DNA of 64,000 nt from Thermoplasmata archaeon. GTDB taxonomy: Archaea > Thermoplasmatota > E2 > DHVEG-1. The translations under genes and the position numbers were made by a program. The stretch is taken from the NCBI GenBank assembly GCA_020054475.1, contig JAHWGJ010000004.1:5384-69383 (forward strand), in the 5' to 3' direction. Below are positions 44,259-64,000 of this stretch, piece by piece (position 1 is the first letter of the stretch; each line of letters opens with the position of its first letter). The notes under the pieces were generated by a model. That model was not told the origin of the DNA and ran no database searches. It was given only the letters and a program-made list of their open reading frames with translations.

Positions 44259-44271
44259 AAAAAGATTATTA

Positions 44272-46789: not shown

Positions 46790-48124
46790 ATGGAAGATGA
46801 TCTAAATATATTGGGGGTTATACCTTCAGATAGAAAAAAATTAGAAAACATGGGAATTACAAAAATTCCACAAATAGCAATGATGTCTGTTAATTCTCTT
46901 GGGATGGGAAATAGTAAAGGGAACATGCTCATACAAAGAGCTAGAAATATAATTGCAAATGATAATATCGCGGATATTGATATTATAGATGATGATCATA
47001 TTACTGTTAAAGTAAAAAGAATAGATAGAGCAATTATAAAATCAGTATTAAACGCATTAGATATTTATTCCGCTAAATGGGGAAATGCTGCATTAAAAAC
47101 TGAAGGGAATATCTTAAAAATTTCAAGAAATTCTCAAGCCTTTGATAAAATTATATCAAAAGCAAAAACATTATCAGAAATTATTGAAATTAAAAAAATT
47201 GAAGAAAGAGAAAAAATTGGAATATATTTACCAGATGAAGAACTAATTGAATTTGCAAAAAAAAGAGGTTTTAAAGGTTTTTGGAAAAACGTTTTTCAAG
47301 AAATTCATGGTAATGACATAATGAAAAAGGTAATTTCATCAAGCATGTTCTCGACTTTTAGGGATCCAATTCACTCATTAATAATAGGCGAGCCAGGTAG
47401 CAGCAAAACAATGGCAAAGGAAATAATAAGTGAACAATTTGATGATATAACTAATATTGGTGCAAACACTACTAGATCTGGTTTAGTCTGTAACTTAGGA
47501 ACTGGCGATTTAGGGGCCTTATCACACTCAAATAATAAATTAGTATTAGTTGATGAATTTGATAAAATTCCAGAAGAAGATATTGAATATTGCTATGAAT
47601 TATTATCTAATGGGAAGTGTAGTGTTCATTCTGCTAAAATTCATCAAAATATTGAAAGTGAATTTATTATGATAGCTTTTGCAAATCCAAAATCAAAAGT
47701 ATTCCGTAAAAACGCAATTTTAGATATAGGGTTATCGCCTTTATTAGTTAGTAGATGCGCATTAATTGTTAGAGTAAAAAATATATCAAAAAGCGACAGA
47801 CTAAACTTATTTGAAAAAAAATTTTATGGTGCTGGAGAAATTGAAGAAAAACATGAATATTATAATCAATGGATGCGATTATCTAGAACGTATAATCCAG
47901 AAATAATAGCATCTGAAAAAATAGTAAAAAAATATATAAATAATATGAGTGAAATTGTTGAAAAATATTATTCAACAAACCTCCGAAGAGATCTAAGAAT
48001 GGCGGACTATATAAGAAGAATACCATTATCAATTGCTCGTTCATCTTTTTCATCTGTAAATAATGATATAATTGAAGAAGCAGGAAATATTATTGAAGAT
48101 TCAATTAATACATGGAACGAATAA
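46790..48124 (+). CDS. Mini-MCM: MCM-type AAA+ ATPase core with an N-terminal helix-hairpin-helix region. Lacks the MCM N-terminal zinc/OB domains.
   Basis: Walker A IIGEPGSSKT, Walker B LVDEFDKI, sensor-1 IAFANPKSK, Arg-finger-like LLVSRCALIV, and a lid R-rich helix RRDLRMADYIRRIPLSIARS. N-terminus LGVIPSDRKKLENMGITKIPQIAMMS is HhH-like. Confidence 0.6.
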   Translation: MEDDLNILGVIPSDRKKLENMGITKIPQIAMMSVNSLGMGNSKGNMLIQRARNIIANDNIADIDIIDDDHITVKVKRIDRAIIKSVLNALDIYSAKWGNAALKTEGNILKISRNSQAFDKIISKAKTLSEIIEIKKIEEREKIGIYLPDEELIEFAKKRGFKGFWKNVFQEIHGNDIMKKVISSSMFSTFRDPIHSLIIGEPGSSKTMAKEIISEQFDDITNIGANTTRSGLVCNLGTGDLGALSHSNNKLVLVDEFDKIPEEDIEYCYELLSNGKCSVHSAKIHQNIESEFIMIAFANPKSKVFRKNAILDIGLSPLLVSRCALIVRVKNISKSDRLNLFEKKFYGAGEIEEKHEYYNQWMRLSRTYNPEIIASEKIVKKYINNMSEIVEKYYSTNLRRDLRMADYIRRIPLSIARSSFSSVNNDIIEEAGNIIEDSINTWNE

Positions 48125-48324
48125 AAATAATACTAATTTATCTTGTTAAATAAGTTAATTAATGGTGTGATAAATTATAAATATAACCTATTGAATATTA
48201 TATATTGTAACAGCGGGGGGTAATAAATAGAAGCAATTATTGTGAAATAAAATGAATTTTTTATTATTTATGCTCCTATTTTATTATTTGTATTATTTCC
48301 ATATTACATACCTCCGTTTAAGAC

Positions 48325-48356
48325 GGAAGTGGGGAAAATTAATTTTTCCCACTCCT
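48325..48356. other. Imperfect ~15-bp hairpin GGAAGTGGGGAAAATT / AATTTTTCCCACTCC
   Basis: Seen in sequence about 200 nt downstream of the mini-MCM stop. Confidence 0.3.
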
Positions 48357-48649
48357 TTCTAAATATTCGCATATAAAAAAAAAATGAATAAATCTAATAT
48401 CAAAGATAATAAACCAACAATCAAATAAGTAATATCTATAAACTATCCTTCTAACTACAAAAATATAAAAATCAATTTCTTGAAAACATAACTTAAAAAA
48501 TATAATTGGGGAGATAAAAAATAATTTCAATATTTTGGGAGGTAAACATGAAAAAATTTTTCCTCTTATACTTTGCTTAGAATTCTGATTACATAATAAC
48601 TCAATAAAATTACTTCTCACAATTTAATTTGAATAAAAAATCTGAGAAT

Positions 48650-49700
48650 TATAAATAAATGATGAATCAAAAAATTAAACTATCTTCCTATAACCATTTT
48701 TCCTAAGATTCCTCTGTCTTTCATGTAATTCTTGATATCTTCTATCTTTATGTCTTAAAAAATTATTCAACAAATTAAAACCCCCTAATATAATAATACA
48801 ACCTTAAACCTAAAAACTACCTAATAGATTCTCATAATAACTCTTTATAACATTGTAACGAGCTAATTCCAACTGTTTTTTCAATAAACCGTTTTTCAAC
48901 ATTATAATATATAAGAGCCTCATACTATAACTAATTTACGTAAATTGTCGTAATATATATACGTTTATTAACGTAATTTTACAATAATGAAAAAAAAATA
49001 GAATCAGGAGAGAGAAAAACCTTCCCTCCAAAAACTACCTTTTTTACCTCCGAAAAAACTAAATAAAACAAAAAACTAACAGAAAAATCTACTAAATAAT
49101 TCTCATACTATAGTAATATCACTGTAGCCGTTAGCCGTCTTAATTTCAACTGTTTTTTTGATAATCTTCCATGTCTACGCATAAAATAACATATGCTGCA
49201 CCTAGTATAACTAATTGCCGATATAAAATTCGATATATGACGAATTTTAATAAATATTCTTTTTAATACTAATTATTTGACAATAAAATACAACAATAAA
49301 AATTTATCAAAATCAGAAATATATTTCTTAAAATTCTCATAAACATAACGCAACAACAACTAATTAGCTAAATTAACCGTTTCATACTACTCTTAAATAT
49401 CAATATTTTAAATAAATCTATCATAATAATCATTCATTACAACATTTATATAATAATCTAAAGCTACCTTATTACGCCTTTTAAAATTGCCTTCTATCTT
49501 ATCATAATAAAAAATTCTAAAATTTTTTCGAATTAAACAAGGAATGGATTCAAGTGAACTATTATCTAAAAACCTTCAAAAACCTCAACCTAATTCATTA
49601 TTTCAACCATTTCTATTATTTTGAAATAAATAACAAAATATTTATTCCAATCAAATATTAAAGATAAGAATATATAAAACTTACAAACTCAATAAAATAT
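48650..49700. repeat. G-depleted (+ strand) non-coding block with at least two degenerate ~170-bp direct repeat units (about 48800-48965 and 49085-49260) and a possible third partial unit near 49330
   Basis: Shared strings include ttctcata-taa, ttccaactgtttttt / tttcaactgttttttt, and actataactaatttacg / agtataactaattgccg. No ORF larger than the 48339..48620 artefact. Confidence 0.45.
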
Positions 49701-49732
49701 TGTGAGTCTAAAACTATAATGTTGGTGAAATA

Positions 49733-49924
49733 GTGAGAGATGGTGCAAATTACATTAAACAATTTGAATCTGAGGAAATTAAAAAAATTATTAATCTTAT
49801 ATATGATAGTAAACCAGAAAAAATTGAATTCAGTGATTCAATAAAACAAAAACACTTGGAAGTAATTAATTATGTAGATTCACTTGAAAAACCAAAGATT
49901 AGTTTTTGGAAGAAAAAAAGATAA
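49733..49924 (+). CDS. Small hypothetical protein
   Basis: ORF only. Confidence 0.2.
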   Translation: MRDGANYIKQFESEEIKKIINLIYDSKPEKIEFSDSIKQKHLEVINYVDSLEKPKISFWKKKR

Positions 49925-50109
49925 TTTCACATTAATTTTAATAATTTATTTTCATTTATAATTATTACAAAGATTTAAATACTCAATTATCAAATACATG
50001 ATTAGAAATCTAAAATTAATTTTGTAAATTAAATACATAATAATTATTTTATTATATACAATAAATCTTCTAAAATATTAGATTATTTATTAAGATTTAG
50101 GAATAAATT

Positions 50110-50457
50110 ATGAAATATGATGAATTATTAAATAAAAAAAAGGAATTAAAAAAAATTATTATTAATTCAAATTTTAACAATAAAAATGAAAAATATTATG
50201 AAGGATTCAAAAAAGGAGTATTAGAATCCGTTAATTTATTTAATTCTACAATTGCTTTTTATAAACAATATAAAGATGACGTTAAATTATTGATGAAGGA
50301 GCAAAATAAACTTTGGCTTAAATGGGTTGACTATTATAATGGTCAAACAAGTATAGATAATTCAAATTATAAAAATCGATACAATAAATGGCTTTTTGAT
50401 AATATTTTTTCAAATATAAAAACAGAAGAAAATGAGGAATTATTAGAATTATTTTAA
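50110..50457 (+). CDS. Small hypothetical protein
   Basis: ORF only. K/N-rich helical. Confidence 0.25.
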   Translation: MKYDELLNKKKELKKIIINSNFNNKNEKYYEGFKKGVLESVNLFNSTIAFYKQYKDDVKLLMKEQNKLWLKWVDYYNGQTSIDNSNYKNRYNKWLFDNIFSNIKTEENEELLELF

Positions 50458-50462
50458 AATAT

Positions 50463-50732
50463 TTATTTTGTTATTTGATTTGAATTATTGTGGTTTCTTA
50501 TTTCATCAAAATATCTGCGGCAACTTCTTTTAATTTGAGCAAGTTGTTGTTGGGGAATTTTATAGGATTGTTGAGTTAATTCAAGGGCAAATATTAAACC
50601 ATGTACGAATGCTCCAGGATTATAATTTTTCTCATTACTAAGCTTAAATATTTCATCAGTTATTTTCATTGCATCTTCAATAGTATATGAAGTTTCAATT
50701 TTCTTGTCATCCTCTTTAGATATTTCAGTCAT
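50463..50732 (-). CDS. Small hypothetical protein
   Basis: ORF only. Confidence 0.25.
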   Translation of the reverse strand: MTEISKEDDKKIETSYTIEDAMKITDEIFKLSNEKNYNPGAFVHGLIFALELTQQSYKIPQQQLAQIKRSCRRYFDEIRNHNNSNQITK

Positions 50733-50855
50733 AAAATTACATTCAAACTTAGCTATAAATAAATTTGTTTTATAGGATATTATTTAAATTTATACTGTTT
50801 TTTCTTAATGTTTATAAACTATAAATGTATTCTTTTATGTAGTGCGTGATAATAT

Positions 50856-51059
50856 ATGAATGAAGAAGATAAAAAAGAATTTTTAGAAGATTTTCGAAAA
50901 GCAAATGGAGATGCAAAACTTGATATGTGGTATTACGCACTTGAACAAGAAGTTTTATGGGAATCAATATTAGCAGATATGTCAGAAATTGCAAAAGAAC
51001 AAAAAATGGATAAAAAATTAGACGACATGATGAAAGAAGATATTAAAAAAATTTCATAA
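50856..51059 (+). CDS. Small acidic hypothetical protein
   Basis: ORF only. Confidence 0.2.
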   Translation: MNEEDKKEFLEDFRKANGDAKLDMWYYALEQEVLWESILADMSEIAKEQKMDKKLDDMMKEDIKKIS

Positions 51060-51451
51060 TACTTTAAAATATTTTTCTTCTAGATTATAATAATAAATTT
51101 TTGTTTTATAGCATAAATATTAGTATATTTAATTGTTAGATATTAACAATAATTCTTTATTAAATGGAGGTAATAATTTGGATAAAATTGAAATAATAAG
51201 AAGAGCAGAGAATGCTATTTTATGGTTAGAAAATGCTGAGCGAGCTGTAGTTGATGCTAAGGAAGATATAATCAAATTAATTGAAGAGGCGAAAAAATAA
51301 TATTTTTTTTTCAATTAAGATTTGACATGACATTTAATACAAACATTATGTTTTATATCAAAACAATTTCTACAAACTAACGTCCCGCATAATATACAAG
51401 TAAACAATACACTAGGTTTTCCACAAATATTACATAAACCAGAAATTTCCA

Positions 51452-52195
51452 TTATTTTTCACCAATTATAATTAATTTTTTAGTTAAATCATCTAAAGGA
51501 AGATCAGTAGTAACAAGAGGGATATCTTCCCTTTCAGCTAATTTAACAGCAAGTTGGTCAACAGCTCCGGGTTTATGATATACTACTATTGTAGGTTTAA
51601 CTGGATGCACCCGAACAGCAATCATGGGACTTCGTCCATATCGTATGCCCGTAAATATTAGCGCTCTTTCAGGGGACCAACCATAGAGATTTGCATAATC
51701 AATTGGGGTAATATTTTCAATTATTTTAATACTATCAACAAGAGTAAAACCCTTTACTTTTTTCTTGAAGCCAATTTTTCCAGAAGTTAAAATATTCCCA
51801 TTTATATTATTAATAAAATTTTCTACTGTAACTGCATATGGATATTCCATAATTTCAATAATTCCATCATGTGTCGTAACCATTGAATCATATTGATGTA
51901 TTATTTTTCCTCCAAGGTTTTCATCGATTTTAATAAACCCTTCGATTATTTTTTTAACAGTTTGAATTCCCGGAGATTTTCTTCTACCTGATTCATAGTC
52001 ACTTATTACGCTAGGTGATAAATTTAAATAAGAAGCAAGCTCGGTTTGACTTATTCCAAAAATATTCCTCCATTTTCTAATAGTTTTTCCGGGTTTAGGG
52101 CTAAGAGTTATTTCGCCAGCAATTTTTTCTGATAAAATATCTTTTACATCCATCTTATTTCTCCATAGGTTTAAATTTATATCCATAATGTTCAA
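51452..52195 (-). CDS. XRE-family HTH transcriptional regulator with a C-terminal uncharacterised domain
   Basis: ISQTELASYLNLSPSVISDYESGRR is an HTH_3-type helix-turn-helix. Divergent from the integrase gene. Confidence 0.5.
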   Translation of the reverse strand: MNIMDINLNLWRNKMDVKDILSEKIAGEITLSPKPGKTIRKWRNIFGISQTELASYLNLSPSVISDYESGRRKSPGIQTVKKIIEGFIKIDENLGGKIIHQYDSMVTTHDGIIEIMEYPYAVTVENFINNINGNILTSGKIGFKKKVKGFTLVDSIKIIENITPIDYANLYGWSPERALIFTGIRYGRSPMIAVRVHPVKPTIVVYHKPGAVDQLAVKLAEREDIPLVTTDLPLDDLTKKLIIIGEK

Positions 52196-52238
52196 AGTGG
52201 GAATATATTAATATAATACTTTTTCTATAACATATATT

Positions 52239-53633
52239 GTGGTTCATATGGTTACTACTCCTTATGATGTCGATAGATATATCGTCAATATGTTAAATAA
52301 TTTTCGTAATAAATCGCATAAAAAAGATGCTGAAGAATACCTATTTATTAGAGAAAGAATAGACAAAGTAAACAACTATACTAGACGAAATGATGTACAA
52401 GCTCTTTTATCCCTTGATTTTTTCCTAAAAGGTAAATCCTACGAAAAAGCAACACAAGATGATATACTTGCCTTTGAACAATATCTGGAAAAAGAATATG
52501 TAAGTCCTGGTAAAAAAGAAAGATACGAAAAAACAATAAAAGCAGGGAATGAAGCAATAAGACCAAAGGTTGGCCTTGACTCTGGATCAGTAGAACAATA
52601 TGAAGCACATATCAAAAGATTCTATAAATATCTATCAAATAAAAATGAATATAAGAAAGGGAAAAGATTTCAGAAAAATATTCCTTATCCGAATAGTGTT
52701 TCATGGATTTCTGCAAGTTCTCAAAATAGTAAAGAATTTCCAATTGACAAACTATTGAAAGAAGAAGAACTTCTTAAACTCCTAAATATGTGTGATAATA
52801 CAAGGGATAAAGCCATGATCTCTGCTGGATTTTATGATGCAGGATTGAGGATAGGGGAATTAATTTCATTAAATATACGAAGCGTAGGTTTTGATAAATT
52901 AGGTGGATATTTTATTTTGCCAAAAAAGGGAGAAAATCTTAAAACAGGCGTGAGGCGAATTAGATTATTTATTATGCCAAGTTCAACTAAATATCTCAAG
53001 GATTTTATTAATAATCATCCATTCAAAAAATATGAGGATGCACCATTATTTTTCACCCAGAATTATTCAACATTTAATAAGATAATCAATAAAATTAATA
53101 ATAATACTTTTAAAAAGGATGATTTTGAGGAAGTAAGACTATCAAGACCAGGCATTGAAAACAAGATTAAAAAATATTGTAATCTTGCAGGAATCTCAGT
53201 TCTTACCCCGCATCAATTAAGACATAATTCTGCAACTCTTTCTTGTAAAGCAGGATTTAATGAAGCACAAATGAGGTTGCGATATGGATGGAGTAAAACA
53301 TCAAAGATGCCGAGTAGATATACTCATCTTGTATCTGCTGATCTTGATGAAAAAATAAAACAGATTACTGGTTTTAAAGAACCTGATAAACCATTGAAGA
53401 GTAAACTTGAGAGTATAATCTGTTGGAATTGTAATGATGAGAATGTACCGACTAATAAGTTCTGTTCAATGTGTGGGAGCAATCTTAATCCCAAAAAAGA
53501 AGAAATTACTCCAACTGCTGCAGAAACTGGAATTGCATTACAAAAAAGCATGAATCAAGATGAAATGTATCAACTAATGTTTAAGAAATTACAGGATATG
53601 GAAAAAGAACTTAAAAAGCTAAAAAATAAATAA
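52239..53633 (+). CDS. Tyrosine recombinase / phage-type integrase with a C-terminal zinc-ribbon tail
   Basis: Catalytic-box residues: LRIGELISL (Arg), HQLRHNSATL (HxxR), SKMPSRYTHL (Tyr). C-terminal CWNC...CSMCG. Confidence 0.7.
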   Translation: MVHMVTTPYDVDRYIVNMLNNFRNKSHKKDAEEYLFIRERIDKVNNYTRRNDVQALLSLDFFLKGKSYEKATQDDILAFEQYLEKEYVSPGKKERYEKTIKAGNEAIRPKVGLDSGSVEQYEAHIKRFYKYLSNKNEYKKGKRFQKNIPYPNSVSWISASSQNSKEFPIDKLLKEEELLKLLNMCDNTRDKAMISAGFYDAGLRIGELISLNIRSVGFDKLGGYFILPKKGENLKTGVRRIRLFIMPSSTKYLKDFINNHPFKKYEDAPLFFTQNYSTFNKIINKINNNTFKKDDFEEVRLSRPGIENKIKKYCNLAGISVLTPHQLRHNSATLSCKAGFNEAQMRLRYGWSKTSKMPSRYTHLVSADLDEKIKQITGFKEPDKPLKSKLESIICWNCNDENVPTNKFCSMCGSNLNPKKEEITPTAAETGIALQKSMNQDEMYQLMFKKLQDMEKELKKLKNK

Positions 53634-53801
53634 TCCCCATTCCTTTTTATTATACAACCAAAACAATTTTAGATTTAACTTTTCAATTAAATTTTCTAAT
53701 CATAATCATTCAAAATAGAGAAAGTTATATATCCATGTATTATTATATTATTTATTCCTATTATCATATGGGGGGGAATAATAAACGGAGGGTAAATTAT
53801 T

Positions 53802-54917: not shown

Positions 54918-55463
54918 TTTAATAAATTTGGAATATAAAATAATAAGGAGAGAGGGGAGAAGATAGAAAAACCCTATTCGTCTCAAGATTAGGATGGGCT
55001 AGGCTAAAAGAAATATCCGTTTTATAACTCCCCACTCACTTAATATATTTGTAACTAATGTTATTTATAGTTTAACATTTTTTAGATGTAACATCTATAA
55101 ATAAAGAAGGAAAGAGAGGGATTCGTATATTCAAAAACGGAGGTAAAAAGAGTTTTAGGTAATATACATAAAAAGGAATCCATCTCTCATTAATATATTG
55201 TTTATCATTGTTATTATATAAAATAAACGATTATATATTCGTCAATAAGCGATATTTATTCATTTTTAGATGTTTAGATTAAGGATATTAGAATGTGTTA
55301 AAGGAAAGATGGAAGAGAATAGAGGTATAAATGAGAGATGGGATGGAAGGGAAGAGGTGGAATAAAAAATATTAATCCTAAATCCTCTATTCTCTGATAT
55401 TATACTCTGTAATTTGGCTATATAAAGATTATTTGACAAGTATTATCAAAAGATTTATAACAT

Positions 55464-55694
55464 ATGTATTACAAATATTATAATAAGGTGACCTCTATGC
55501 CAATGAAATGTCAAATATGTAGAAAATTTTTTGGTATTGTATATAAAAAACATAAATTGAAAGATGGTAGAATTGTTTGTATTGATTGTTTAGAGAGATT
55601 ACACGAAAAAAAACACCAATCTCAAGAAATGGCAAAAAAAAATATATGTGAATATTGTAATAAGAAAATTCATAGAATAAGTGAAGGGTGGTAA
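55464..55694 (+). CDS. Zinc-ribbon protein (three CxxC pairs)
   Basis: CQICRK...CIDC...CEYCNKK. Confidence 0.35.
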   Translation: MYYKYYNKVTSMPMKCQICRKFFGIVYKKHKLKDGRIVCIDCLERLHEKKHQSQEMAKKNICEYCNKKIHRISEGW

Positions 55695-55862
55695 TAGTTA
55701 ATATCAGAAGATTTATTAGATGTTGAGTATACCATTACAATATGGACAATAGCATTCATTAAATTGTTCGACATATACCCTATTGATTCTATTTTCCCAA
55801 TCCTTATCCATCATCTTAACGAAATCTAAACCTACCATTACTATCAAAATGGAAATATCATC

Positions 55863-55948
55863 TGAAGTATATTAATAGTCAGAAAATGTTTGGGATATAC
55901 CAAATGATTTATTAGATATGTTTTTGTTACAAAATCTGGGAGTATATC
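55863..55948 (+). repeat. Promoter/leader module type B, copy 1 (TGAAGTATAT ... TTTATTAGATATG ... AAATCTGGGAGT)
   Basis: Seen in sequence. Shared with 56362..56440, 57611..57656 and 57798..57889. Confidence 0.45.
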
Positions 55949-55959
55949 TATGAAACATT

Positions 55960-56328
55960 ATGGAAGAATATAATATGAAAACACATATTGTTATTGGATT
56001 GACATTTGTATTAATTTTGGTTGGTTTTAGTGGATGTGTAGAGCAAAATGGAAATGAAGACTATAGTTCTTTATTTATTGGTAGTTGGGAACGACCTGAC
56101 GGAAAACCTTTGATTATGTATGAAAATGGTTCATATTTTACAGATGCATCTCAATTAAATTCACCTTTGAGTTTTTGGGGAACTTGGAATGTCATAGATG
56201 ATACTAGATTTTTATTACATTATCAAGGGGAGACATTGTCTTATACATTTGAATTTGTGAATGATAATAAGTTTATTGTCACGGATATTGAATCAGGAAT
56301 TATAAAAACTTATAGTAGAATAAGTTAG
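55960..56328 (+). CDS. Small secreted lipoprotein-like protein
   Basis: Signal plus VGFSGCVEQ lipobox-like, as in the SBP genes. Confidence 0.4.
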   Translation: MEEYNMKTHIVIGLTFVLILVGFSGCVEQNGNEDYSSLFIGSWERPDGKPLIMYENGSYFTDASQLNSPLSFWGTWNVIDDTRFLLHYQGETLSYTFEFVNDNKFIVTDIESGIIKTYSRIS

Positions 56329-56361
56329 TGAAATTAAAATTAGTATGTGAAAAAGTACATT

Positions 56362-56440
56362 TGAAGTATATCTTATTAAAATCTGTTAAGCATAGTTTTA
56401 TTAGATATGGTTTAGTTACAAAATCTGGGAGTTTGCGTGT
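56362..56440 (+). repeat. Promoter/leader module type B, copy 2
   Basis: gaagtatatcttattaaaatctgttaagcatagttttattagatatggtttagttacaaaatctgggagt. Confidence 0.45.
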
Positions 56441-56773
56441 ATGGAAAATAATTATAAAATAGGTTTAATTTTGATTGTTGTTGGCTATATATCTATTATA
56501 TCTGCATTAATTATTTCGTATGCTAGTTTTTTATCTATCCGTGATTATTCAAATTATGATTTATTTAATAATTTACATACTATATTCTTATTTGTTTTTA
56601 TAGCTGGATTAATATTAATTCCAATAGGACTTATTTTACAATCTTTAAAAATTAAAATTAAGAAATTCTCTAAAAAACCAGTTGAAATGGCAAGAAAAAT
56701 ACTATATGAAAGATATGCTAAAGGAGAGATTTCTAAGAAAGAATTTCAAGATATGAAAAAAGATTTAGAATGA
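56441..56773 (+). CDS. Two-TM membrane protein with C-terminal SHOCT domain
   Basis: C-terminus ILYERYAKGEISKKEFQDMKKDLE matches the SHOCT consensus (L..RYA.GEI..EE....K). Confidence 0.5.
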   Translation: MENNYKIGLILIVVGYISIISALIISYASFLSIRDYSNYDLFNNLHTIFLFVFIAGLILIPIGLILQSLKIKIKKFSKKPVEMARKILYERYAKGEISKKEFQDMKKDLE

Positions 56774-56796
56774 TATGTTGAAAAGAAGTAGAACTA

Positions 56797-57090
56797 ATGA
56801 AAAATAATTACATTACTGTTGGAGTGACTATTATTCAAGTATGTGGTGTATTAGCAGTTGTATTCTATGCTTTGTTGTTTGAATCAATATTAACTTATGC
56901 TATGATTCTAGGTGTGATTATAGGTATTATTATATTGATTATTGGAAAAACAGAAAGTGAGAAAGAAGTTATTAAGAGTAATCCATCAAAACAAGATAAT
57001 AAAGCATTACAAATCTTAAAAGAGAGATATGCAAAAGGTGAGATAACAAAGAGAGAATTTAAGGATATGAAGAAGGATGTAGAGGGATAG
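56797..57090 (+). CDS. Two-TM membrane protein with C-terminal SHOCT domain (paralog)
   Basis: ILKERYAKGEITKREFKDMKKDVEG. Confidence 0.5.
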   Translation: MKNNYITVGVTIIQVCGVLAVVFYALLFESILTYAMILGVIIGIIILIIGKTESEKEVIKSNPSKQDNKALQILKERYAKGEITKREFKDMKKDVEG

Positions 57091-57093
57091 AAT

Positions 57094-57513
57094 ATGGGTT
57101 TAATGAAATATTTAGGTGGTATTGGACTTTACTTGTTAGGTGGATTTTTAATATTTATTGGTATAGTATCTTCAATTGTTGCTATTGAAATGTGTGCAAT
57201 TTTAGTTGTTGTTGGTATTATTATTTTATTATCAGGTGTTTTTTATACAAGAACTTCAACTTATGACGTTCCAAGACATATAAAAATTGTAAATAAGAAA
57301 AAGAAAAGAGATGATGATATAAGATGCACAAATTGTGGAAGAGTAATACCTATAGATGCTAAAATTTGTCCATATTGTAGTAAGAAATTAATTGAGGATG
57401 TTAAAGAAATAAATGATAGCAACTCTCCAATTGAAATTTTAAAGAATAGATTTGCAAAGGGTGAACTTACTGAAGAAGAGTATGAAAGAATGAAGAAGAA
57501 ATTAGAAGGATAG
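57094..57513 (+). CDS. Two-TM membrane protein with internal zinc ribbon and C-terminal SHOCT domain (paralog)
   Basis: CTNCGRV...CPYCSKK, then ILKNRFAKGELTEEEYERMKKKLEG. Confidence 0.5.
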   Translation: MGLMKYLGGIGLYLLGGFLIFIGIVSSIVAIEMCAILVVVGIIILLSGVFYTRTSTYDVPRHIKIVNKKKKRDDDIRCTNCGRVIPIDAKICPYCSKKLIEDVKEINDSNSPIEILKNRFAKGELTEEEYERMKKKLEG

Positions 57514-57516
57514 AAT

Positions 57517-57609
57517 ATGAATAAACGAAGATGGAAGAAATGTGGTAAATTGTTTATGCCTACAGACATTTATGACTATACTTGTGAAATCTGCTCTATG
57601 GAAAGTTAA
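57517..57609 (+). CDS. Micro zinc-ribbon ORF (30 aa)
   Basis: MNKRRWKKCGKLF...YTCEICSMES. Start overlaps the stop of the upstream gene. Confidence 0.2.
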   Translation: MNKRRWKKCGKLFMPTDIYDYTCEICSMES

Positions 57610-57610
57610 G

Positions 57611-57656
57611 CATAAATTTATTAGATATGTTAAGTTATTTCAATTGGAGTTACAGA
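57611..57656 (+). repeat. Promoter/leader module type B, copy 3 (partial)
   Basis: cataaatttattagatatgttaagttatttcaattggagttacagaATG. Confidence 0.35.
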
Positions 57657-57794
57657 ATGACAGTATATAGATGCAATATCTGTGGTATTGAATATCCAAA
57701 AGATGAATTAGAGAGTGGTGTTTGTTTGGATTGTCTTGCATCTATAGTTCAAAAAGATGAAATAAATTTAGGATGTGGGGAGGATAGTTTATAG
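57657..57794 (+). CDS. Small zinc-ribbon protein (45 aa)
   Basis: CNICG...CLDC...GCGED. Confidence 0.3.
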   Translation: MTVYRCNICGIEYPKDELESGVCLDCLASIVQKDEINLGCGEDSL

Positions 57795-57797
57795 ATT

Positions 57798-57889
57798 TGA
57801 AAGAGATATCTTATTAACATCTGTTAAGAAAACTTTTATTAGATATGTTTTAGCTACAATTACTAGATAATATTAGGGAGGTTATTAAA
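57798..57889 (+). repeat. Promoter/leader module type B, copy 4
   Basis: tgaaagagatatcttattaacatctgttaagaaaacttttattagatatgttttagctacaa...tagggaggttattaaaATG. Confidence 0.45.
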
Positions 57890-58159
57890 ATGATAAGAAA
57901 AAATGTTGGTTTTTTAATTATGTTCATTGGTGGTCTTGGCTTAGGATTACTATTAGGAAATGAGTTTTCAAGTTCTTATATAACAATAGTTGGAGCTATA
58001 TTATTATTAATTACTATAGGTTCAATAATAATATTGTCTTATAACAAAAAGGATAAGGATTTAAAACCTGGTTCAAAAGCATACGATGAAATTGGAGATC
58101 TTACTGAACTATCTTATGAACTCAGAGATAGAAGTAAAGGTAAGGATAAGGTGAAATGA
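57890..58159 (+). CDS. Small two-TM membrane protein with K/D-rich tail ending GKDKVK
   Basis: ORF. The tail motif recurs in micro-ORFs 58330..58380 and 60809..60856. Confidence 0.4.
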   Translation: MIRKNVGFLIMFIGGLGLGLLLGNEFSSSYITIVGAILLLITIGSIIILSYNKKDKDLKPGSKAYDEIGDLTELSYELRDRSKGKDKVK

Positions 58160-58287
58160 AAGGAATTAAAGAAAAGAATTTTTGTGATAAATGTAAAACA
58201 ATGACTTGGCATGAATATAGAGGAACAACAAAAAAAAGAAAAGGACAAACAGAGTGTCTTGAGTGTCATAATATAAGAATTTTATAA
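58156..58287 (+). CDS. Small zinc-ribbon protein (43 aa). ATG overlaps the upstream TGA (GTGAAATGAAAGG).
   Basis: NFCDKCKTMTWHEY...CLECHN. Paralog of 60589..60786 (NYCDNCKTNTWHRY...CQVCKH). Confidence 0.4.
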   Translation: MKGIKEKNFCDKCKTMTWHEYRGTTKKRKGQTECLECHNIRIL

Positions 58288-58370
58288 AAAAAAGATAAAG
58301 ATATTGGTTTGATTAATGAGGAAATTGAGATGAGTTATTATAAACCTGATAAAAAGAAAGGTGTGGGTAA

Positions 58371-58598
58371 GGTGAAATAATCGTTTTAAAATTTAAGAAG
58401 AGAAAAAAGATTAAGTTAAAATCAAAATATAAAACAAAAATCGCTTATTGGATTTGTAGTGATTGCCATTGTGAATTTACAGACTCAGAGGATTATAAAA
58501 AATTGACAAAAAAGATAACATGTCCTTATTGTGGTAGAAAAAATATGACACATTTTAAAGAAGGAAAATATTCTGCCGATGTTATAAATAACATCTAA
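58371..58598 (+). CDS. Zinc-ribbon ORF (CSDCHC...CPYCGRKN) with no canonical start codon. Open stop-to-stop.
   Basis: Frame opens after TAA 58368-70. It overlaps the tail of micro-ORF MSYYKPDKKKGVGKVK (58330..58380). Confidence 0.25.
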   Translation, partial: GEIIVLKFKKRKKIKLKSKYKTKIAYWICSDCHCEFTDSEDYKKLTKKITCPYCGRKNMTHFKEGKYSADVINNI

Positions 58599-58620
58599 AA
58601 AATTACATTTAAATTTTTTT

Positions 58621-58712
58621 AAATCCCCCCTGTTGAAAAATAGTGTTATAATGCCTTAAAACCTGTTTTTCTCATGTTACACCCATGTTTTATAGGAGAA
58701 ACAACCTTATAA
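58621..58712 (+). repeat. Conserved intergenic element type A, copy 1 (AAATCCCCCCTGTTGAAAAATAGTGTTATAATGCC ... hairpin ... AGGAGAAACAACCTTA)
   Basis: Seen in sequence. Four copies share a TGTTATAATGC box, a T-run, and a CTCCTGTTAC...AGGAGAAA hairpin. Confidence 0.55.
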
Positions 58713-59036
58713 ACATTATAATAATAAAATTTATATCTTTTAATTTTATATAATTGTTGGGAGATAATATAGAGGGATTTATATTGAAGTTTATTAAATT
58801 GTCATTTATTATTAGTATACTCTTTTTTAGTTTGTTTATATCATTTTCAATAATATATCCAAAATCCAATATTGCATCTGCTGTAGATCCATATACAATT
58901 TGATTCAATTGTAATATTAGAAATTGAAGATTCAAGTGTTTTAGATATACCCATTCATCCTTTAAAAGGTGTTAAAAACATAGATATTAAGATTAAATAT
59001 TTTAATACAATTCCAAAAGAAATTAAGGACAGTTTT

Positions 59037-59798
59037 ATGATTAAAGGATTACTTTTTGGATTTAATAAATTTTCATTTATAACACCAGTTAATTTAACCA
59101 TAGAACGTACTAGCATACCAAATTGGTGTAATGTATCAATAATACCGCCAATTATAATTTTTGATGCATTTGATGATGGAGAAAATCTTGAACGTAGAGC
59201 TACTCTGCAGGTAGCTGTTAATAAAAAATCAACAGCTTTATTCCCATTTACATTGAGCATAATTGCTAAAGCAGATACACCAGACCCAAACATTAAACCT
59301 CCTCCTATTGCTACATTACCAATTACAATAACCCCGGGGTATGTTCCATTAATCTCCACTGATCCAGGTGCAGCAATTAAAAAAACTATACCGGGTAAAC
59401 CTGTTAATTGGAATATAAGAATATCTAACAATGGAAATGGTGAAGCTTTAGTTAAAGCTCGAATAATTAACTATCTTGAAGGATGGATTGTATCAGTAAA
59501 CCCTCAGATATTAATTCCATCACTAGCAGATGGAAAAAATAATGAAAATAACTTGTCATTAACAGCATTACCTCCTTTAAATATGGGTTATTATAATGAA
59601 AATGTAAAGATTGAAATTGAATTAACACCAGAATTTTCATCTCCAGGGGCTGGATCTTTGATTAATTCAATGAAAGGTGAACCAATGTATCTTACACTAT
59701 TAGTACAACTGAGAGGTTTCTCATTACCAGGATTTGAATTTATATTCATTATAATTGGAATATTGATTATTATAATTGTTAGAAAAAATAAGATATGA
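59037..59798 (+). CDS. Surface protein with canonical PGF-CTERM archaeosortase sorting signal
   Basis: C-terminus RGFSLPGFEFIFIIIGILIIIIVRKNKI is PGF, then a TM helix, then a basic tail. Pro/Thr/Ile-rich body. N-terminal signal not evident. Overlaps the minus-strand ORF 58955..59431. Confidence 0.45.
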   Translation: MIKGLLFGFNKFSFITPVNLTIERTSIPNWCNVSIIPPIIIFDAFDDGENLERRATLQVAVNKKSTALFPFTLSIIAKADTPDPNIKPPPIATLPITITPGYVPLISTDPGAAIKKTIPGKPVNWNIRISNNGNGEALVKARIINYLEGWIVSVNPQILIPSLADGKNNENNLSLTALPPLNMGYYNENVKIEIELTPEFSSPGAGSLINSMKGEPMYLTLLVQLRGFSLPGFEFIFIIIGILIIIIVRKNKI

Positions 59799-59853
59799 AA
59801 AAATTTATAATTGCAAATAAAAAAGAAAAATAAGTATTTTTGGAGATAATCAA

Positions 59854-59982
59854 ATGGATGAAACAAGAAAATGTCCGTTATGCAATCAGAACTTATTTGA
59901 AAATATTGTATGGAGTAATCAATTAGTCAGATACTGCCACGATTGTCAGAAAATCTTTATTAATAATAACGAGTATTTTTAA
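59854..59982 (+). CDS. Small zinc-ribbon protein (42 aa)
   Basis: CPLCNQ...CHDCQK. Confidence 0.3.
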   Translation: MDETRKCPLCNQNLFENIVWSNQLVRYCHDCQKIFINNNEYF

Positions 59983-60029
59983 GGTGATAATATAGAAATT
60001 TGTTGAACTGGAATTAAATAAATAATTGT

Positions 60030-60128
60030 TTTTCCCTCCTTTTGGAATTAGTGTTATAATACCTTAAAACCTGTTTTATCTCCTGTTACACCCCCATCTA
60101 CCAAGGAGAAACAACCTTTTAAAGCAAA
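60030..60128 (+). repeat. Conserved intergenic element type A, copy 2
   Basis: tttttccctccttttggaattagtgttataataccttaaaacctgttttatctcctgttacacccccatctaccaaggagaaacaaccttttaaagcaa. Confidence 0.55.
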
Positions 60129-60153
60129 TTCATATTATTAAGTATTGGTAAAG

Positions 60154-60273
60154 ATGGAAGATAAGAAACCTATGATCTGTAATTATTGTAAAAAAATAAT
60201 ATATGCAGATCATGAATGTTTTGAAGAACATGAAGGTAAATACTATCATGCAGACTGCAAGGACAAAATTTAA
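60154..60273 (+). CDS. Small zinc-finger protein (39 aa)
   Basis: CNYCKK...HECFEEHEGKYYHADC. Confidence 0.3.
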   Translation: MEDKKPMICNYCKKIIYADHECFEEHEGKYYHADCKDKI

Positions 60274-60319
60274 CAATTGAAATTGAATAATTTAATAATT
60301 GCAATAGAGGATTAAATAG

Positions 60320-60580
60320 ATGATTTGGCAGGATTATGCAATAACAATAATCGTTTACATGTTCGTTGCAGTAACTATACCACAATTAATAGATGTAATT
60401 AAAGGAAGAACGTCGTTGAATCTTTTCACTGCTGGAGCAACATCTCTTGGTAACTATGGTCTTGCATATATATTCTTCACTTTAGATTTATGGTTATCAG
60501 TAACATCAGCAATTCTTATTGCAACTCTTTGGATGTTATTGTTTTTATTTTCAATGAGAAACAAAAAAAAGGGAAAATAG
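60320..60580 (+). CDS. Small two-TM membrane protein
   Basis: ORF, hydrophobic. Confidence 0.4.
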   Translation: MIWQDYAITIIVYMFVAVTIPQLIDVIKGRTSLNLFTAGATSLGNYGLAYIFFTLDLWLSVTSAILIATLWMLLFLFSMRNKKKGK

Positions 60581-60588
60581 GATTATAA

Positions 60589-60786
60589 ATGATTAATAAA
60601 ATGTTGGAAGAAAATATTGAAGGAATAAAGGAACGCAACTATTGTGATAACTGCAAAACAAATACTTGGCACAGATATTTTGAATCAAATGTAATTGGAG
60701 ATTCATATAATCAATGTCAAGTATGTAAACACAAACGATTCCAAAAAGATTTTATTGGAATTCGTGATAGAAAATTTAAACAATGA
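60589..60786 (+). CDS. Small zinc-ribbon protein (paralog of 58156..58287)
   Basis: NYCDNCKTNTWHRY...CQVCKHKRF. Confidence 0.4.
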   Translation: MINKMLEENIEGIKERNYCDNCKTNTWHRYFESNVIGDSYNQCQVCKHKRFQKDFIGIRDRKFKQ

Positions 60787-60855
60787 TGTGATTGGTGAGA
60801 AAACCGAGATGAGTTATTACGCACCAGATAAGAAAGATAAGGATAAGGTGAAATA

Positions 60856-61155
60856 ATGAAGGTTAGATATTATCTTATTGGATTGATACTAATAATATTA
60901 GGTTTCCTATCTTTTGTATCGATAGCTGTATTAAATGAATATTCCTGGATGAATATTACATATCATATTATTCTAACAATATCTGGTTTTCTATTGATAG
61001 CTCTTGGTATAATCAGTATGATTATATTTCTTAGACCGAAGAATAAAGCAAAACCATCTCAAGAAGAACAGGACGTTGATCTTGCTGATAAGCTTGAGGA
61101 TTCAGCAGTTTATCATGCTCAACATAAAAAGAAAGTTAAGGATAAGAGGGAATAA
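60856..61155 (+). CDS. Small two-TM membrane protein with K-rich tail. ATG overlaps the TAA of micro-ORF 60809..60856.
   Basis: ORF, hydrophobic N-terminal half. Confidence 0.4.
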   Translation: MKVRYYLIGLILIILGFLSFVSIAVLNEYSWMNITYHIILTISGFLLIALGIISMIIFLRPKNKAKPSQEEQDVDLADKLEDSAVYHAQHKKKVKDKRE

Positions 61156-61157
61156 AA

Positions 61158-61448
61158 TTGTTATTTGAAAAGAAGGAAAACAAAGACAAGGAAGAAAAAA
61201 TTAATCCTGTTTATCATCCTTATGTTAACAAACCTTATTATCATGATAGTATATTTTTCAATGGTAAATATTATCATGGTACTATTAAGGAGGGGATTGC
61301 TGAATTATGTGATGATCCTATCAATCCATGTAGACTTTCTATGCTTGTAAAAGTTAAAACACAGAGGATAAAAACTATTTATGACGGCGGGGATACTGAG
61401 ATAATTGTTATTGAAGGGGAAATATTAAAAGATTATACAAAAATGTAA
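61158..61448 (+). CDS. Small hypothetical protein (His/Tyr-rich N-terminus)
   Basis: ORF only. Confidence 0.3.
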   Translation: MLFEKKENKDKEEKINPVYHPYVNKPYYHDSIFFNGKYYHGTIKEGIAELCDDPINPCRLSMLVKVKTQRIKTIYDGGDTEIIVIEGEILKDYTKM

Positions 61449-61545
61449 TTTCCCTTATGTTGGAAATTGTGTTATAATGCTTTAAAAGGTACTTTTTACT
61501 CCTGTTAACCCCTAGGTCTATAGGAGAAATAATACTTTTAATTAC
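61447..61545 (+). repeat. Conserved intergenic element type A, copy 3
   Basis: aatttcccttatgttggaaattgtgttataatgctttaaaaggtactttttactcctgttaacccctaggtctataggagaaataatacttttaattac. Confidence 0.55.
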
Positions 61546-61589
61546 CCTTTGTCTTTATTAAAATATTATTTATTTCATCAACATTAATT

Positions 61590-61778
61590 ATGAAATCTAG
61601 AGAAACCTGTATTAAATGTGGTCGTAACAAATCATCTGATAATGTGTCTTTGTTTTGTGTATCATGTAAAAACAAGATCATCAACTATTGTTGGAATTAT
61701 CAAAATAAACTACAAGATAGTTATTTAAATCGTAAGAGTCCCACAACAGGTCCAATTTTTTTTAAATTATCATCCTGA
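61590..61778 (+). CDS. Small zinc-ribbon protein
   Basis: CIKCGRNK...CVSCKNK. The 3' end overlaps the convergent eRF1-like gene. Confidence 0.3.
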   Translation: MKSRETCIKCGRNKSSDNVSLFCVSCKNKIINYCWNYQNKLQDSYLNRKSPTTGPIFFKLSS

Positions 61779-62788
61779 CTAAATTCAACAATCGCATCAG
61801 TTCGTTCCGCGATTTTAACGATCTCTTCGACAATATCAACTTCGGATGTTTTCTTTCCACAGGCCGGACAGATAGATAAGATACCTTCTTCAATGAGTTG
61901 ACAGCGTTCGCAAATCCAACCTTTTTGTTTAACATCTTTTTCTACAAGCAATGCCTCCACTTGTCCATTTTTCACTGCTGTTAATGTATTTTTAAGACCA
62001 TATACTGCCAATCCGTTTTTCAAAATCTCAATTCGAATCAGTTCAAGTAACCGTTGATGTTCCTGTTTACCTTTTTCTTTCATTATTTCATGTGTTTCAT
62101 TGAACAATCCATATTCATCATCCATATCAACATTCACTTCTGCAATTACGCCTTTTTGAAGCATTATTGGTAACATGTCACGAAAGTGTTTCTTCGTTTC
62201 CCCTGGGCCTGCAAGAAGAATGTTATCTCGTGCAATTTTTTGAAGAGCCTCAACAATTTCTGTTAAAAAGGTATGTATATTTCCTTTTCTTAATCGTTGG
62301 AATCGTGCTTGGGACATACCACCTTTTTTATGCTTATTCATAATATCTGCAGAGAGATCTTTTTCGGTATTTAGTTCTCCGCAGGAAAAAGAAAATATTT
62401 TTGCATGATTAGAATTCAGCAACACAAGAGTATAAACCTGCCATTCATCAGCTAACTCAGCTATCTGATGAATATAAGGAGATACGTCAACAACAAGAGA
62501 ATTTTTTACGTTCACGGGAAATGTGATAGCCTTGAAAAAATTATTTTTATCAGATGCAAAAATTGCGTGATTTGATCCCTTGTTTTTCTTCAAATATGTC
62601 TTTATCTCATTGATTGTTTTTAAGAAATTTTTTAATTCATCATATTTTAAAATGTGTTGAATCACTTTTTCTCTGTGTTGAATAAAATGTTCATCTTTTC
62701 CATCAAAATATAGACTAACAAATGTTTTCAAATTATCTTTATCATAAATTTCAATAAGTCCAGGTAATGATTTATCACATGTCTTCAT
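61721..62788 (-). CDS. eRF1/aRF1-like release-factor paralog: divergent N-domain, GGQ loop replaced by [16 protein letters not shown], C-domain with a CxxC-x12-CxxC zinc ribbon
   Basis: Central and C-terminal blocks align by eye to eRF1. [29 protein letters not shown] matches [43 protein letters not shown] matches [32 protein letters not shown] matches [29 protein letters not shown] matches GIGGILRYRVDF. No NIKS or YxCxxxF motif in the N-domain. Confidence 0.55.
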   Translation of the reverse strand: [355 protein letters not shown]

Positions 62789-63209
62789 AAGAAAAAAATA
62801 TAAACATATTCTATTTAAAACATTTCTAATTATCTAATGGGAACTGATGAAAAATATAGGTTGTGTTTATAGTAGGGAGGAAAAGAGGGGGCAAAAACCC
62901 AAAAAGCACCTCAAAACTTATCTTCAAGACAGGTTTTAAATATGAAAACTTGTGAAACATTTTAATTCCGAGATAAATCAATATTTTACCAGTAAACTGG
63001 TGTTCAAATCCCTTCCCCTGCATAATTTTTTAAAAAATAATTGGATATATATACTGATTTACTCAAAACTAGATTACTATTAAAATTGAGAGAAATATCC
63101 CCCTAGATTAAATTATATAAAACTCGGCAAAAACGTTATTATAATAAATAAAATTTATAATCTCTTGTAATATACAAATATTGGGGGATGTATTAGGAGG
63201 GAATAAAGA

Positions 63210-63404
63210 ATGGATAAAAAAAATATTGATTATAAGGCTATTTATTCGTTAGGTATAATTTTTACGTTTAGTGGTATTCCAATAACAATTGCAACAAGAA
63301 ATCCAGCTTTTTTGGGATTAATGGCTTTTGGTATAATATTAATGCTAACTGGTTATGTAAATAGAGATAAATGGGAAGGTGCGATTAAAAAAAAAGGAAT
63401 TTGA
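63210..63404 (+). CDS. Small two-TM membrane protein
   Basis: ORF, hydrophobic. Confidence 0.3.
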   Translation: MDKKNIDYKAIYSLGIIFTFSGIPITIATRNPAFLGLMAFGIILMLTGYVNRDKWEGAIKKKGI

Positions 63405-63503
63405 GGAGATGAAAGAGGATTTTAAAAAGCAATATGAAAAAGAATTTGAGGAGATTAAAAAGGGTTTTAAAAAACAAAATAGAAAAAAAATTGAAAATAA
63501 CTG

Positions 63504-63600
63504 AAATCCCCCCTGTTGAAAATACTGTTATAATGCTTTAAAACCCTTTTTTTCTCCTGTTACCCTCTATTTACTAAGGAGAAATACTACTTTAAAGCAA
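63504..63600 (+). repeat. Conserved intergenic element type A, copy 4 (perfect 8-bp stem TTTCTCCT / AGGAGAAA)
   Basis: gaaatcccccctgttgaaaatactgttataatgctttaaaaccctttttttctcctgttaccctctatttactaaggagaaatactactttaaagcaa. Confidence 0.55.
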
Positions 63601-63663
63601 TAAAATTTATATCCCTTTATAATATACAATTATTTGGGAGTTACGTCAGGGAGGTAATATAAA

Positions 63664-63996
63664 ATGAAAATTAAGATATATCTAATTATTTTTATTATTC
63701 TAACACCTTTTTTCTATTCAGTATTAGGATATGAAAACATTTTAGAAGAAAATCATCAAAATTCTTCTCAAATACTTGAAACAAACATTTGTAATTCAAT
63801 ACCGACTTGGGAAATAGGAGATATGTGGACATATAAGATAAATGAAATTGTATATATTAATGAAGATTTGACAAATCTCATAAATATTCAATTTAGTGAA
63901 AGTACGCTATTTCTTAATGTTGTAAGTATCTCAGATGATAATTATAATCTAGATTTTATTACCAGTCAGTATGGAAATTTTGAATTAATTATTTAG
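63664..63996 (+). CDS. Small secreted/membrane-anchored hypothetical protein
   Basis: N-terminal hydrophobic signal-like segment. ORF only. Confidence 0.3.
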   Translation: MKIKIYLIIFIILTPFFYSVLGYENILEENHQNSSQILETNICNSIPTWEIGDMWTYKINEIVYINEDLTNLINIQFSESTLFLNVVSISDDNYNLDFITSQYGNFELII

Positions 63997-64000
63997 AATT

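Follow-up and report, generated by a model that had tools for sequence, protein, structure and literature searches.

The DNA analyzed here is a stretch of 64,000 nucleotides (nt), hereafter the window, from an uncultured low-GC Thermoplasmata archaeon of the Thermoplasmatota, and the part under study is the approximately 17 kb between positions 46790 and 64000, where a tyrosine integrase gene leads a run of small genes. A first-pass annotation had interpreted this whole part as one integrated plasmid or provirus. Our analysis supports that interpretation only partly, since the integrase-led island is real but begins at about 52191 rather than at 46790. With a probability of about 0.8, we consider the region to be a composite of host chromosome, a variable spacer and an integrase-led island located at the 3′ end of a DUF35 gene. 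The evidence comes from synteny, empty sites, junction sequences and the integrity of the integrase, and no recognizable backbone genes were found in the visible part of the island. For comparison, we used fetched relative loci (designated by L-numbers) and 80 metagenomic loci of the XRE-family regulator gene that adjoins the island. The earlier gene list, comprising a mini-MCM gene, small open reading frames (ORFs), the XRE gene, the integrase gene and a small-ORF run, was essentially right, and the divergent arrangement of an XRE-type gene and an intact tyrosine recombinase was borne out (Table 1).

Scanning metagenomes with the XRE protein yielded 385 stretches with homologs 72-91% identical. 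We kept 80 of these loci and mapped reference proteins onto them. In 65 of the 80 loci, the genes for DUF7121, HMG-CoA synthase (HMGCS), thiolase, zf-ChsH2 (DUF35), XRE and the small ORF o45 lie on one strand, and the DUF35 stop codon is found no more than 30 nt from the XRE start. Three loci have an integrase gene between the DUF35 side and XRE, 59-64% identical to that of the window, and the same holds for locus L052. Seven others carry different inserts at the DUF35-XRE junction, and five were uninformative. XRE is a host gene, normally directly after DUF35, and the last-but-one gene of this mevalonate-operon cluster. Its place in a conserved host cluster speaks against the earlier proposal that it is the repressor of the element. 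The adjacency of DUF35 and XRE in 65 of 80 loci indicates that the integrase is sporadic at a fixed site and that empty sites are the rule. The comparison of related genomes thus did reveal the empty target sites expected of a site-specific mobile element.

The junction sequences define where the island was joined to the host gene. In the five integrase-bearing loci (the window, L052, L066, L089 and L100), TATTATGGNTATAARTTTAAACC and a stop codon lie directly upstream of XRE, encoding ..YYGYKFKP.. and the stop, and in every one of them the approximately 35-40 nt before the XRE ATG reproduce the 3′ end of DUF35. Beyond this copy, away from XRE, all of them have the integrase promoter-like sequence ATATAAATTTAAT and then the integrase gene. 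At empty sites, DUF35 ends with ..YYGYKFKPLK and a stop. In L145, L005 and L054, which bear an island but no integrase, DUF35 reads ..YGYKFKP and continues into a related foreign tail, namely CETLVTEN (L145), CDTFITKD (L005) and CDSLLSEN (L054). Site-specific integration into the 3′ end of a gene classically leaves this footprint, in which one junction keeps the displaced original 3′ end and the other has a tail supplied by the element. In the window, the displaced copy contains the core CATTATGGATATAAATTTAAACC at 52168-52190, and we read the copy as the probable left attachment site (attL). It also makes the XRE ORF look 14 codons too long by a spurious N-terminal extension.

These features can be accommodated by the following model. 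A circular element with a tyrosine integrase would have recombined at the core of about 23 bp in the DUF35 3′ end, with the crossover at or just before ..AAATTTAARCC. The insertion would have moved the original DUF35 3′ end beside XRE, creating attL, and would have given DUF35 a new C-terminal tail at the right attachment site (attR). The latter would be expected beyond the window, where DUF35 would end with ..GGATATAAATTTAARCC followed by a CxTxxT-like foreign tail. Later remodeling may have included deletions as well as the local duplication of promoter modules along with genes for small membrane proteins and zinc ribbons, and a baeRF gene unit would have been inserted later. In sister lineages, the integrase would have been deleted down to a stub of about 40 nt.

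The integrase of the window presumably made the insertion. As judged from its sequence, it is intact with all catalytic residues: R201, K232, H322, R325, W348 and Y358 are conserved without exception in 31 homologs of 36-68% identity, as is the CxxC..CxxC zinc ribbon at its C-terminus, and the N-terminus is uniform in length among them. The protein matches PHROG integrase families. Its homologs form 85 clusters, all from Thermoplasmatota-type metagenome-assembled genomes (MAGs) or metagenomes, and it is a member of a lineage-specific zinc-ribbon family. Scans of IMG/VR with the integrase and with an integrase alignment found only generic tyrosine recombinases of 23-29% identity. The kinship with viruses or plasmids suggested earlier for the integrase and the mini-MCM was not supported by database searches, which gave no close relatives of either in IMG/VR, PLSDB or GenBank phage sequences (the phage set was searched with the mini-MCM only). 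Box II is defined as KxxR for SSV-type and YxxR for pNOB8-type integrases (PMC8371274). We rejected both assignments, as box II of our integrase is HQLR (HxxR) and the ORF beside attL is an unsplit one of 461 amino acids (aa), unlike a suicidal SSV-type integrase. A XerA resolvase was likewise rejected: the top NCBIfam model carries the name 'XerA / integron integrase', but its score of 78.6 bits falls well short of the cut-off of 220, and the gene is present at the locus in just 3 of the 80 relatives.

Within codons ~8-20 of the integrase gene lies a palindrome-containing segment with 7-bp inverted arms, GTCGATA/TATCGAC. The sequence GTCGATAnnTATATCGnCAATATGTTAAATAnTTTTCG is kept upstream of XRE in eight relatives without the integrase gene (L005, L053, L054, L056, L083, L090, L098 and L145), with 1-7 mismatches, and homology is lost within some 6-35 nt past TTTTCG. 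The internal ATG of the segment is mutated in L145 and L054, but the inverted arms are retained. No match to the segment was found in IMG/VR. The palindromic segment of about 40 nt could itself be taken for an SSV-like recombination site, with the integrase-less carriers as attB or post-excision sites. The retention in eight loci, the similar points at which homology is lost and the inverted arms would all suit this idea, and suicidal integrases with an internal attachment site are an archaeal specialty (PMC8371274). We consider it unlikely, because the integrase ORF beside XRE is intact with a uniform N-terminus in 31 homologs, box II is HxxR instead of the SSV-type KxxR, neither 11.7 kb of the window nor 10 kb of L052 contains the segment a second time, the segment is wholly absent at the 65 true empty sites, and the breakpoints are close together yet not identical. 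The pattern of retention suggests that the segment may now act as a promoter/operator of XRE that constrains deletions, or may itself be a recombination site, the second of which we rank low. A palindromic integrase stub upstream of a host regulator after integrase loss is worth a look.

The island spans from about 52191 to beyond 64000, between DUF35 and XRE, and its visible part is 11.8 kb. The integrase, as the first island gene, is followed by a secreted PKD-domain protein and by small co-oriented ORFs, several of which carry zinc ribbons, and three SHOCT membrane proteins are paralogs. The tiny-ORF cargo described earlier as over 20 ORFs does exist, although we count about 16-18. Its content is wholly different among the window, L053, L145, L005 and L052 at the same site. 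Only the PKD domain of the PKD protein matches other loci, and apart from this domain, o62 and baeRF, the cargo ORFs have no homolog in about 145 related loci, including the integrase-linked region of L052. Between 53.8 and 64 kb, no Pfam hit (among the ORFs scanned) or PHROG hit (for a subset) pointed to replication, packaging, capsid or conjugation genes.

The occupied site has different contents in the relatives. L053 has an island without integrase (1-3650) that encodes an MscS-like channel, a secreted Ig-like protein, several membrane proteins and a zinc-ribbon protein and contains a single copy of the ~95-nt intergenic module described below, and all of its genes point away from XRE, as in the window. 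L052 belongs to a more distant genome. There (11539-21389), genes for an HTH_24 regulator and a NosD-like beta-helix protein, some ten ORFs of one orientation with no Pfam match, and an HNH_3 gene come after an integrase of the family found in the window, a cargo that looks more virus- or plasmid-like than that of the window. The L145 island is 3.25 kb long, and two anchors from the window keep their order in it: 55734-55947 with 81% identity and 61558-61719, which belongs to the o62 gene, with 72% identity. A stretch of the window outside the island, at 31977-32081 in the intergenic region of 31.5-32.4 kb, is 86% identical to 105 nt of the L145 island (16144-16248). It probably derives from a small membrane-protein gene family scattered among variable regions.

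The duplicated promoter-like modules reported earlier are real and fall into two intergenic repeat families. Family A has copies at 55908, 56368/56397, 57605 and 57806/57835. The second family is a module of about 95 nt with five matches, against 0.3 expected by chance. Four of them are in the island region of the window, and a further copy is found in the island of L053, the closest relative. The module has a TTATAA box and then an invariant hairpin, TTTCTCCTGTTA...TAGGAGAAA, without covariation. Because each copy precedes a plus-strand ORF, the module fits a duplicated promoter/leader.

The end of o62 marks a breakpoint. In L145, o62 ends with ..KLQDK and a stop and abuts DUF35. The window departs from this arrangement at 61719/61720, and a 1.3-kb baeRF unit takes the place of the DUF35 gene that the order of L145 predicts. 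This unit is 97.5% identical at the nt level to L147 9638-10938, while the flanks are entirely unrelated, and none of the other loci among the 44 genome loci with baeRF homologs (L008-L051) shares the neighbors of L008. The baeRF gene thus appears, from these sequence comparisons, to move as a unit between genomes, and a release-factor-like gene changing its place between genomes is a side issue worth a look. We considered baeRF as the chromosome-side boundary of the island and rejected it, since modules occur on both sides and the fetched loci have no conserved context around it. The presence of the ~95-nt modules on both sides of the baeRF unit indicates that the island continues past 64000, in agreement with the earlier statement that the end of the element is outside the window. 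Before 64000, no DUF35, thiolase or HMGCS gene was found among ORFs of at least 60 aa (43900-64000) or by Pfam in the ORFs scanned. In an independent assembly of this sample (SRR26538807) by Logan, contigs break at 48166, 50194, 54850, 58176 and 63046. These breaks border the spacer, the stretch rich in paralogs and the baeRF unit on its far side, which suggests repeats or strain heterogeneity in the spacer and the island.

The different cargoes at one site, the co-oriented ORFs with repeated invariant-hairpin modules, the sharply bounded baeRF unit found nearly identical in another context, and the name of the best NCBIfam model would also be expected if a host-retained recombinase at a hot spot exchanged cassettes in an integron-like manner, using the ~95-nt hairpins as recombination sites and involving no plasmid or virus. 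We regard this as quite unlikely. The NCBIfam score is far below the cut-off, most island variants lack an integrase, and the modules lie 160-510 nt from the boundaries of the baeRF unit. Moreover, the modules precede ORFs and carry a TATA-like box, as promoters would, and the five copies in all show no covariation. An integron proper, with a divergent intI and attI and with cassettes ended by attC, was rejected, as the integrase is co-oriented with the ORFs and the modules are off the unit boundaries. A bolder version would see the DUF35/XRE junction as an archaeal gene-capture platform, at which the zinc-ribbon recombinase shuffles promoter-bearing units, including those with the ~95-nt modules and the baeRF unit, under XRE control via the palindrome. 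We think this very improbable. If true, the platform would be a functional analog of the integron in archaea.

One could further suppose that the chromosome to the right of XRE is merely fast-evolving and rearranged, with the integrase as an unrelated passenger or a pseudogene-to-be instead of the agent of insertion. Gene order is indeed poorly conserved in this lineage, as the other 43 baeRF loci without the neighbors of L008 illustrate, and neither backbone genes nor a compositional contrast were found. Nevertheless, five divergent genomes have the integrase at the identical junction, beside the displaced 3′ end of DUF35, and a displaced 3′ end together with a replacement tail is the signature of site-specific integration, so that we give this explanation hardly any credence.

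Several points weigh against the composite with an inserted island. The right junction, with attR and DUF35, is outside the window, so that the direct repeat is deduced across genomes; the attL core is single in the window and in every fetched locus, and a complete element with both ends is absent from all fetched loci. Genes for replication, packaging, capsid or conjugation were not recognized in the visible island. A lineage-widespread baeRF gene inside the island shows later rearrangement, and the DUF35 operon may lie far off. The closest relatives (XRE identity of at least 85%) all have an island or a remnant, and the insertion may be old and fixed in the clade rather than currently mobile.

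To the left of the island, the segment 46790-52153 is ordinary, vertically inherited host chromosome, because it is colinear in relatives without the integrase. L145, a JGI contig of 45 kb, has a mini-MCM of the same 90%-identity cluster as that of the window. It is colinear with the window over 36823-48125 (81% nt identity) and 49618-52166 (74%), with the same gene order of opp genes, o108, o341, hflX, mini-MCM, o63, o115, o89, o67, o45 and XRE. L005 and the P0005 contig share this order, and the five small ORFs from o63 to o45 have homologs in L005 (49-86% aa identity), L053 and L145, arranged in the same order. No integrase gene is present in L145 or L005, and none is listed in the gene table of the P0005 contig. 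The left boundary drawn after hflX in the first-pass annotation was therefore wrong, as hflX through XRE is colinear in the integrase-less L145 and L005. The conservation of gene order that it had named as evidence against a mobile element is found for 46790-52153, whereas the island from about 52191 is strain-variable. No compositional break accompanies the change of style reported after hflX: G+C is about 27% throughout the window (range 0.22-0.32), without a shift at either 46.8 kb or 52.2 kb. Scans of the window for tRNA and tmRNA found nothing, and the Rfam scan gave no family at gathering score. Upstream of hflX, two oligopeptide-type ABC transporter gene sets stand in tandem (32372-43901), which are conserved in L145 1-7074.

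The mini-MCM, previously thought to be the element's own replicase, is a conserved host chromosomal gene of a narrow family and lies outside the island, 4 kb to the left of attL. It does have an MCM-family core, with the motifs GEPGSSKT, VDEFDK, FANP and SRCAL in its translation, corresponding to Walker A, a DEFDK Walker B, an ANP sensor 1 and an SRF-type arginine finger. The P-loop domain of MCM (PF00493) is its only Pfam match. MCM chains in the PDB align to its AAA+ core (residues ~160-335), and the NCBIfam MCM model, which matched the core only, scored 33 bits against a cut-off of 940. The protein lacks the N-terminal OB-fold/zinc domain and has 444 aa, compared with ~650-700 aa in canonical MCMs. 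Its N-terminus has a helix-hairpin-helix-like region. In an AlphaFold model of low confidence (mean pLDDT 59.6, AAA+ core below 50), the N-terminal 140 residues were modeled as helices and a small alpha/beta domain.

We call the family narrow, conserved and chromosomal on the basis of cluster counts, constant length and housekeeping neighbors. More than 120 clusters of homologs have 70-91% identity, mostly with 443-444 aa, which is at odds with the patchy occurrence or fast evolution of a mobile gene. Those with a source name come from Thermoplasmatales/Thermoplasmatota MAGs, and the majority are unnamed metagenome proteins. Among 1.84 billion representatives, 28 clusters (50% identity) and no more reach E<=1e-30, with most complete sequences at ~435-456 aa, and the next matches are canonical MCMs of 650-700 aa with 25-30% identity. 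In two complete chromosomes (CP070798.1 and CP070724.1), the gene is located between eIF-1A/RIO1 kinase/KH protein and NAD synthase.

An MCM-type AAA+ core, the divergent XRE-integrase pair resembling a lysogeny module, and the frequency of MCM genes in archaeal integrated elements (PMC4158269, Table 1; arCOG00439 is listed there as virus-associated) make it tempting to see a single integrated plasmid or provirus from the mini-MCM onward, with its own replicase, iteron origin and XRE repressor. This possibility is extremely slight. The genes from mini-MCM to XRE are syntenic in integrase-less relatives, the mini-MCM is highly conserved with housekeeping contexts elsewhere, none of the 80 XRE loci, 65 of which have XRE in the conserved cluster, has a mini-MCM nearby, and the mini-MCM has no match in the GenBank phage set and only 23-29% identity to full-length MCMs of PLSDB plasmids. 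Iterons are missing as well, and the spacer block is absent from relatives.

The spacer behind the mini-MCM gene is the remaining component of the composite. The repeat-bearing non-coding block noted earlier does exist as an ORF-poor block, but it is about 1.6 kb long rather than 1.1 kb, and its iteron-like character dissolved into one degenerate two-copy repeat of ~200 nt (about 48790-48990 and 49010-49260; best stretch of 24 nt at 88%). An array of at least three short, regularly spaced direct repeats was sought in the spacer and was absent, and TRF gave nothing significant. The longest stop-free frame is 94 aa, and the plus strand is C-rich (239 C vs 125 G). The part without counterpart in relatives is about 48149-49617, and the same interval measures 107 nt in L005, 318 nt in L145 and 363 nt in the P0005 contig. 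This extra DNA has no homology to any fetched locus, and a comparison of the spacer with Rfam gave nothing better than E 0.9. An oriC was ruled out because the block is missing from close relatives. The spacer is best described as strain-variable intergenic DNA rather than as an iteron origin or a known RNA, and is possibly a decayed insertion. Its positions 48489-48612 resemble the intergenic 31568-31701 (~120 nt, 71%), including a GGGGAGA...TTTTTCTCTTATAC motif.

Table 1. Features of the window in and around the integrase-led island
Feature	Position	Strand	Basis or remark
hflX	45412-46680	-	Pfam GTP-bdg_N/M, MMR_HSR1
Mini-MCM, 444 aa, MCM-core AAA+	46790-48124	+	PF00493 E 1.9e-14, 53.7 bits vs cut-off 23.3
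Non-coding spacer	48125-49732		ORF-poor, 1608 nt
o63, conserved small ORF (63 aa)	49733-49924	+	homologs in relatives
o115, conserved small ORF (115 aa)	50110-50457	+	homologs in relatives
o89, conserved small ORF (89 aa)	50463-50732	-	homologs in relatives
o67, conserved small ORF (67 aa)	50856-51059	+	homologs in relatives
o45, conserved small ORF (45 aa)	51315-51452	-	after XRE in most of 80 metagenomic loci
XRE-family helix-turn-helix regulator, 233 aa from ATG at 52153	51452-52153	-	HTH_3 PF01381 E 1.9e-11
Displaced DUF35 (zf-ChsH2) 3′-end copy, ..YGYKFKPMEK and stop; putative attL	52154-52190	-	occupied vs empty locus comparison
Tyrosine integrase, 461 aa, first island gene	52248-53633	+	PF00589 E 6e-18, 65.6 bits vs 27.1; PF13240
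Palindrome-containing segment GTCGATAGATATATCGTCAATATGTTAAATAATTTTCG	52269-52306	+	within integrase codons ~8-20
Secreted PKD-domain protein, 371 aa	53802-54917	+	PF18911/PF00801; no PHROG hit
Run of small co-oriented ORFs, including zinc-ribbon o76	55464-61448	+	Zn_Ribbon_1
Promoter-like module family A	55908-55943, 56368-56432, 57605-57629, 57806-57870	+	repeats D1, D7, D12, D14
Three SHOCT membrane proteins	56441-56773, 56797-57090, 57094-57513	+	Pfam SHOCT E 1e-6 to 1e-11
Small membrane proteins	57890-58159, 60320-60580, 60856-61155	+	ORF run
Intergenic module of ~95 nt, four copies	58625-58713, 60033-60127, 61451-61541, 63507-63600	+	upstream of plus-strand ORFs
o62	61590-61778	+	natural stop removed by breakpoint ~61719/61720
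baeRF/eRF1-like gene with promoter	gene 61721-62788, unit 61703-62996	-	PF18854, PF03464
Island continuation	62997-64000	+	o64 63210-63404; ORF from 63664 runs off window
Tandem repeat of 45 nt	63392-63492		2.2 copies, 85% matches; just upstream of fourth module

Our results define a recurrent integration site, the DUF35 3′ end of the archaeal mevalonate cluster, together with an integrase family that uses it, in a lineage of abundant uncultured sediment archaea with few described mobile elements. The attachment sequences given here are testable. The proximity of an MCM-like gene to an integrase, within a few kb, does not by itself make that gene the replicase of a mobile element, and an attractive annotation could be corrected in this respect. 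The cellular role of the narrow and conserved mini-MCM family is also worth a look.

Krupovic and co-workers reportedly described, in 2010, integrated plasmids and proviruses with MCM genes in Thermococcales and Methanococcales. The window is similar to these elements in having an MCM-family AAA+ gene a few kb from an integrase. However, the mini-MCM lies outside the island, is conserved in the lineage and lacks their N-terminal OB/zinc domain. With the SSV-type suicidal integrases, the locus shares a short integrase coding segment conserved as DNA in integrase-less genomes, but the integrase gene is unsplit and its box II is HxxR, not KxxR.

Archaeal tyrosine integrases target the 3′ ends of genes, usually of tRNA genes and sometimes of protein-coding ones, such as the HMG-CoA reductase gene of the mevalonate pathway for virus BJ1 and an AsnC gene for NitGar-E6 (PMC8371274). 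Our island resembles such 3′-end elements in the integrase by the junction, the displaced target 3′ end with a replacement tail, the empty sites in relatives and the small lineage-specific cargo genes. It differs from them in that the target is the DUF35/zf-ChsH2 gene of an HMGCS-thiolase-DUF35 cluster, that backbone genes of a virus or plasmid are not seen and only one junction is in the window, and that the integrase has a C-terminal zinc ribbon, the word 'zinc' occurring nowhere in the 2021 review (PMC8371274). In its small, fast-evolving membrane and secreted proteins associated with an integrase, the island is like the 'dark matter islands' (Makarova et al., 2014; PMC4158269). It is thus of an already known kind, a tyrosine-integrase island in a gene 3′ end with dark-matter cargo (PMC4158269), but unlike those islands, its insertion site and junction are definable from 80 related loci.

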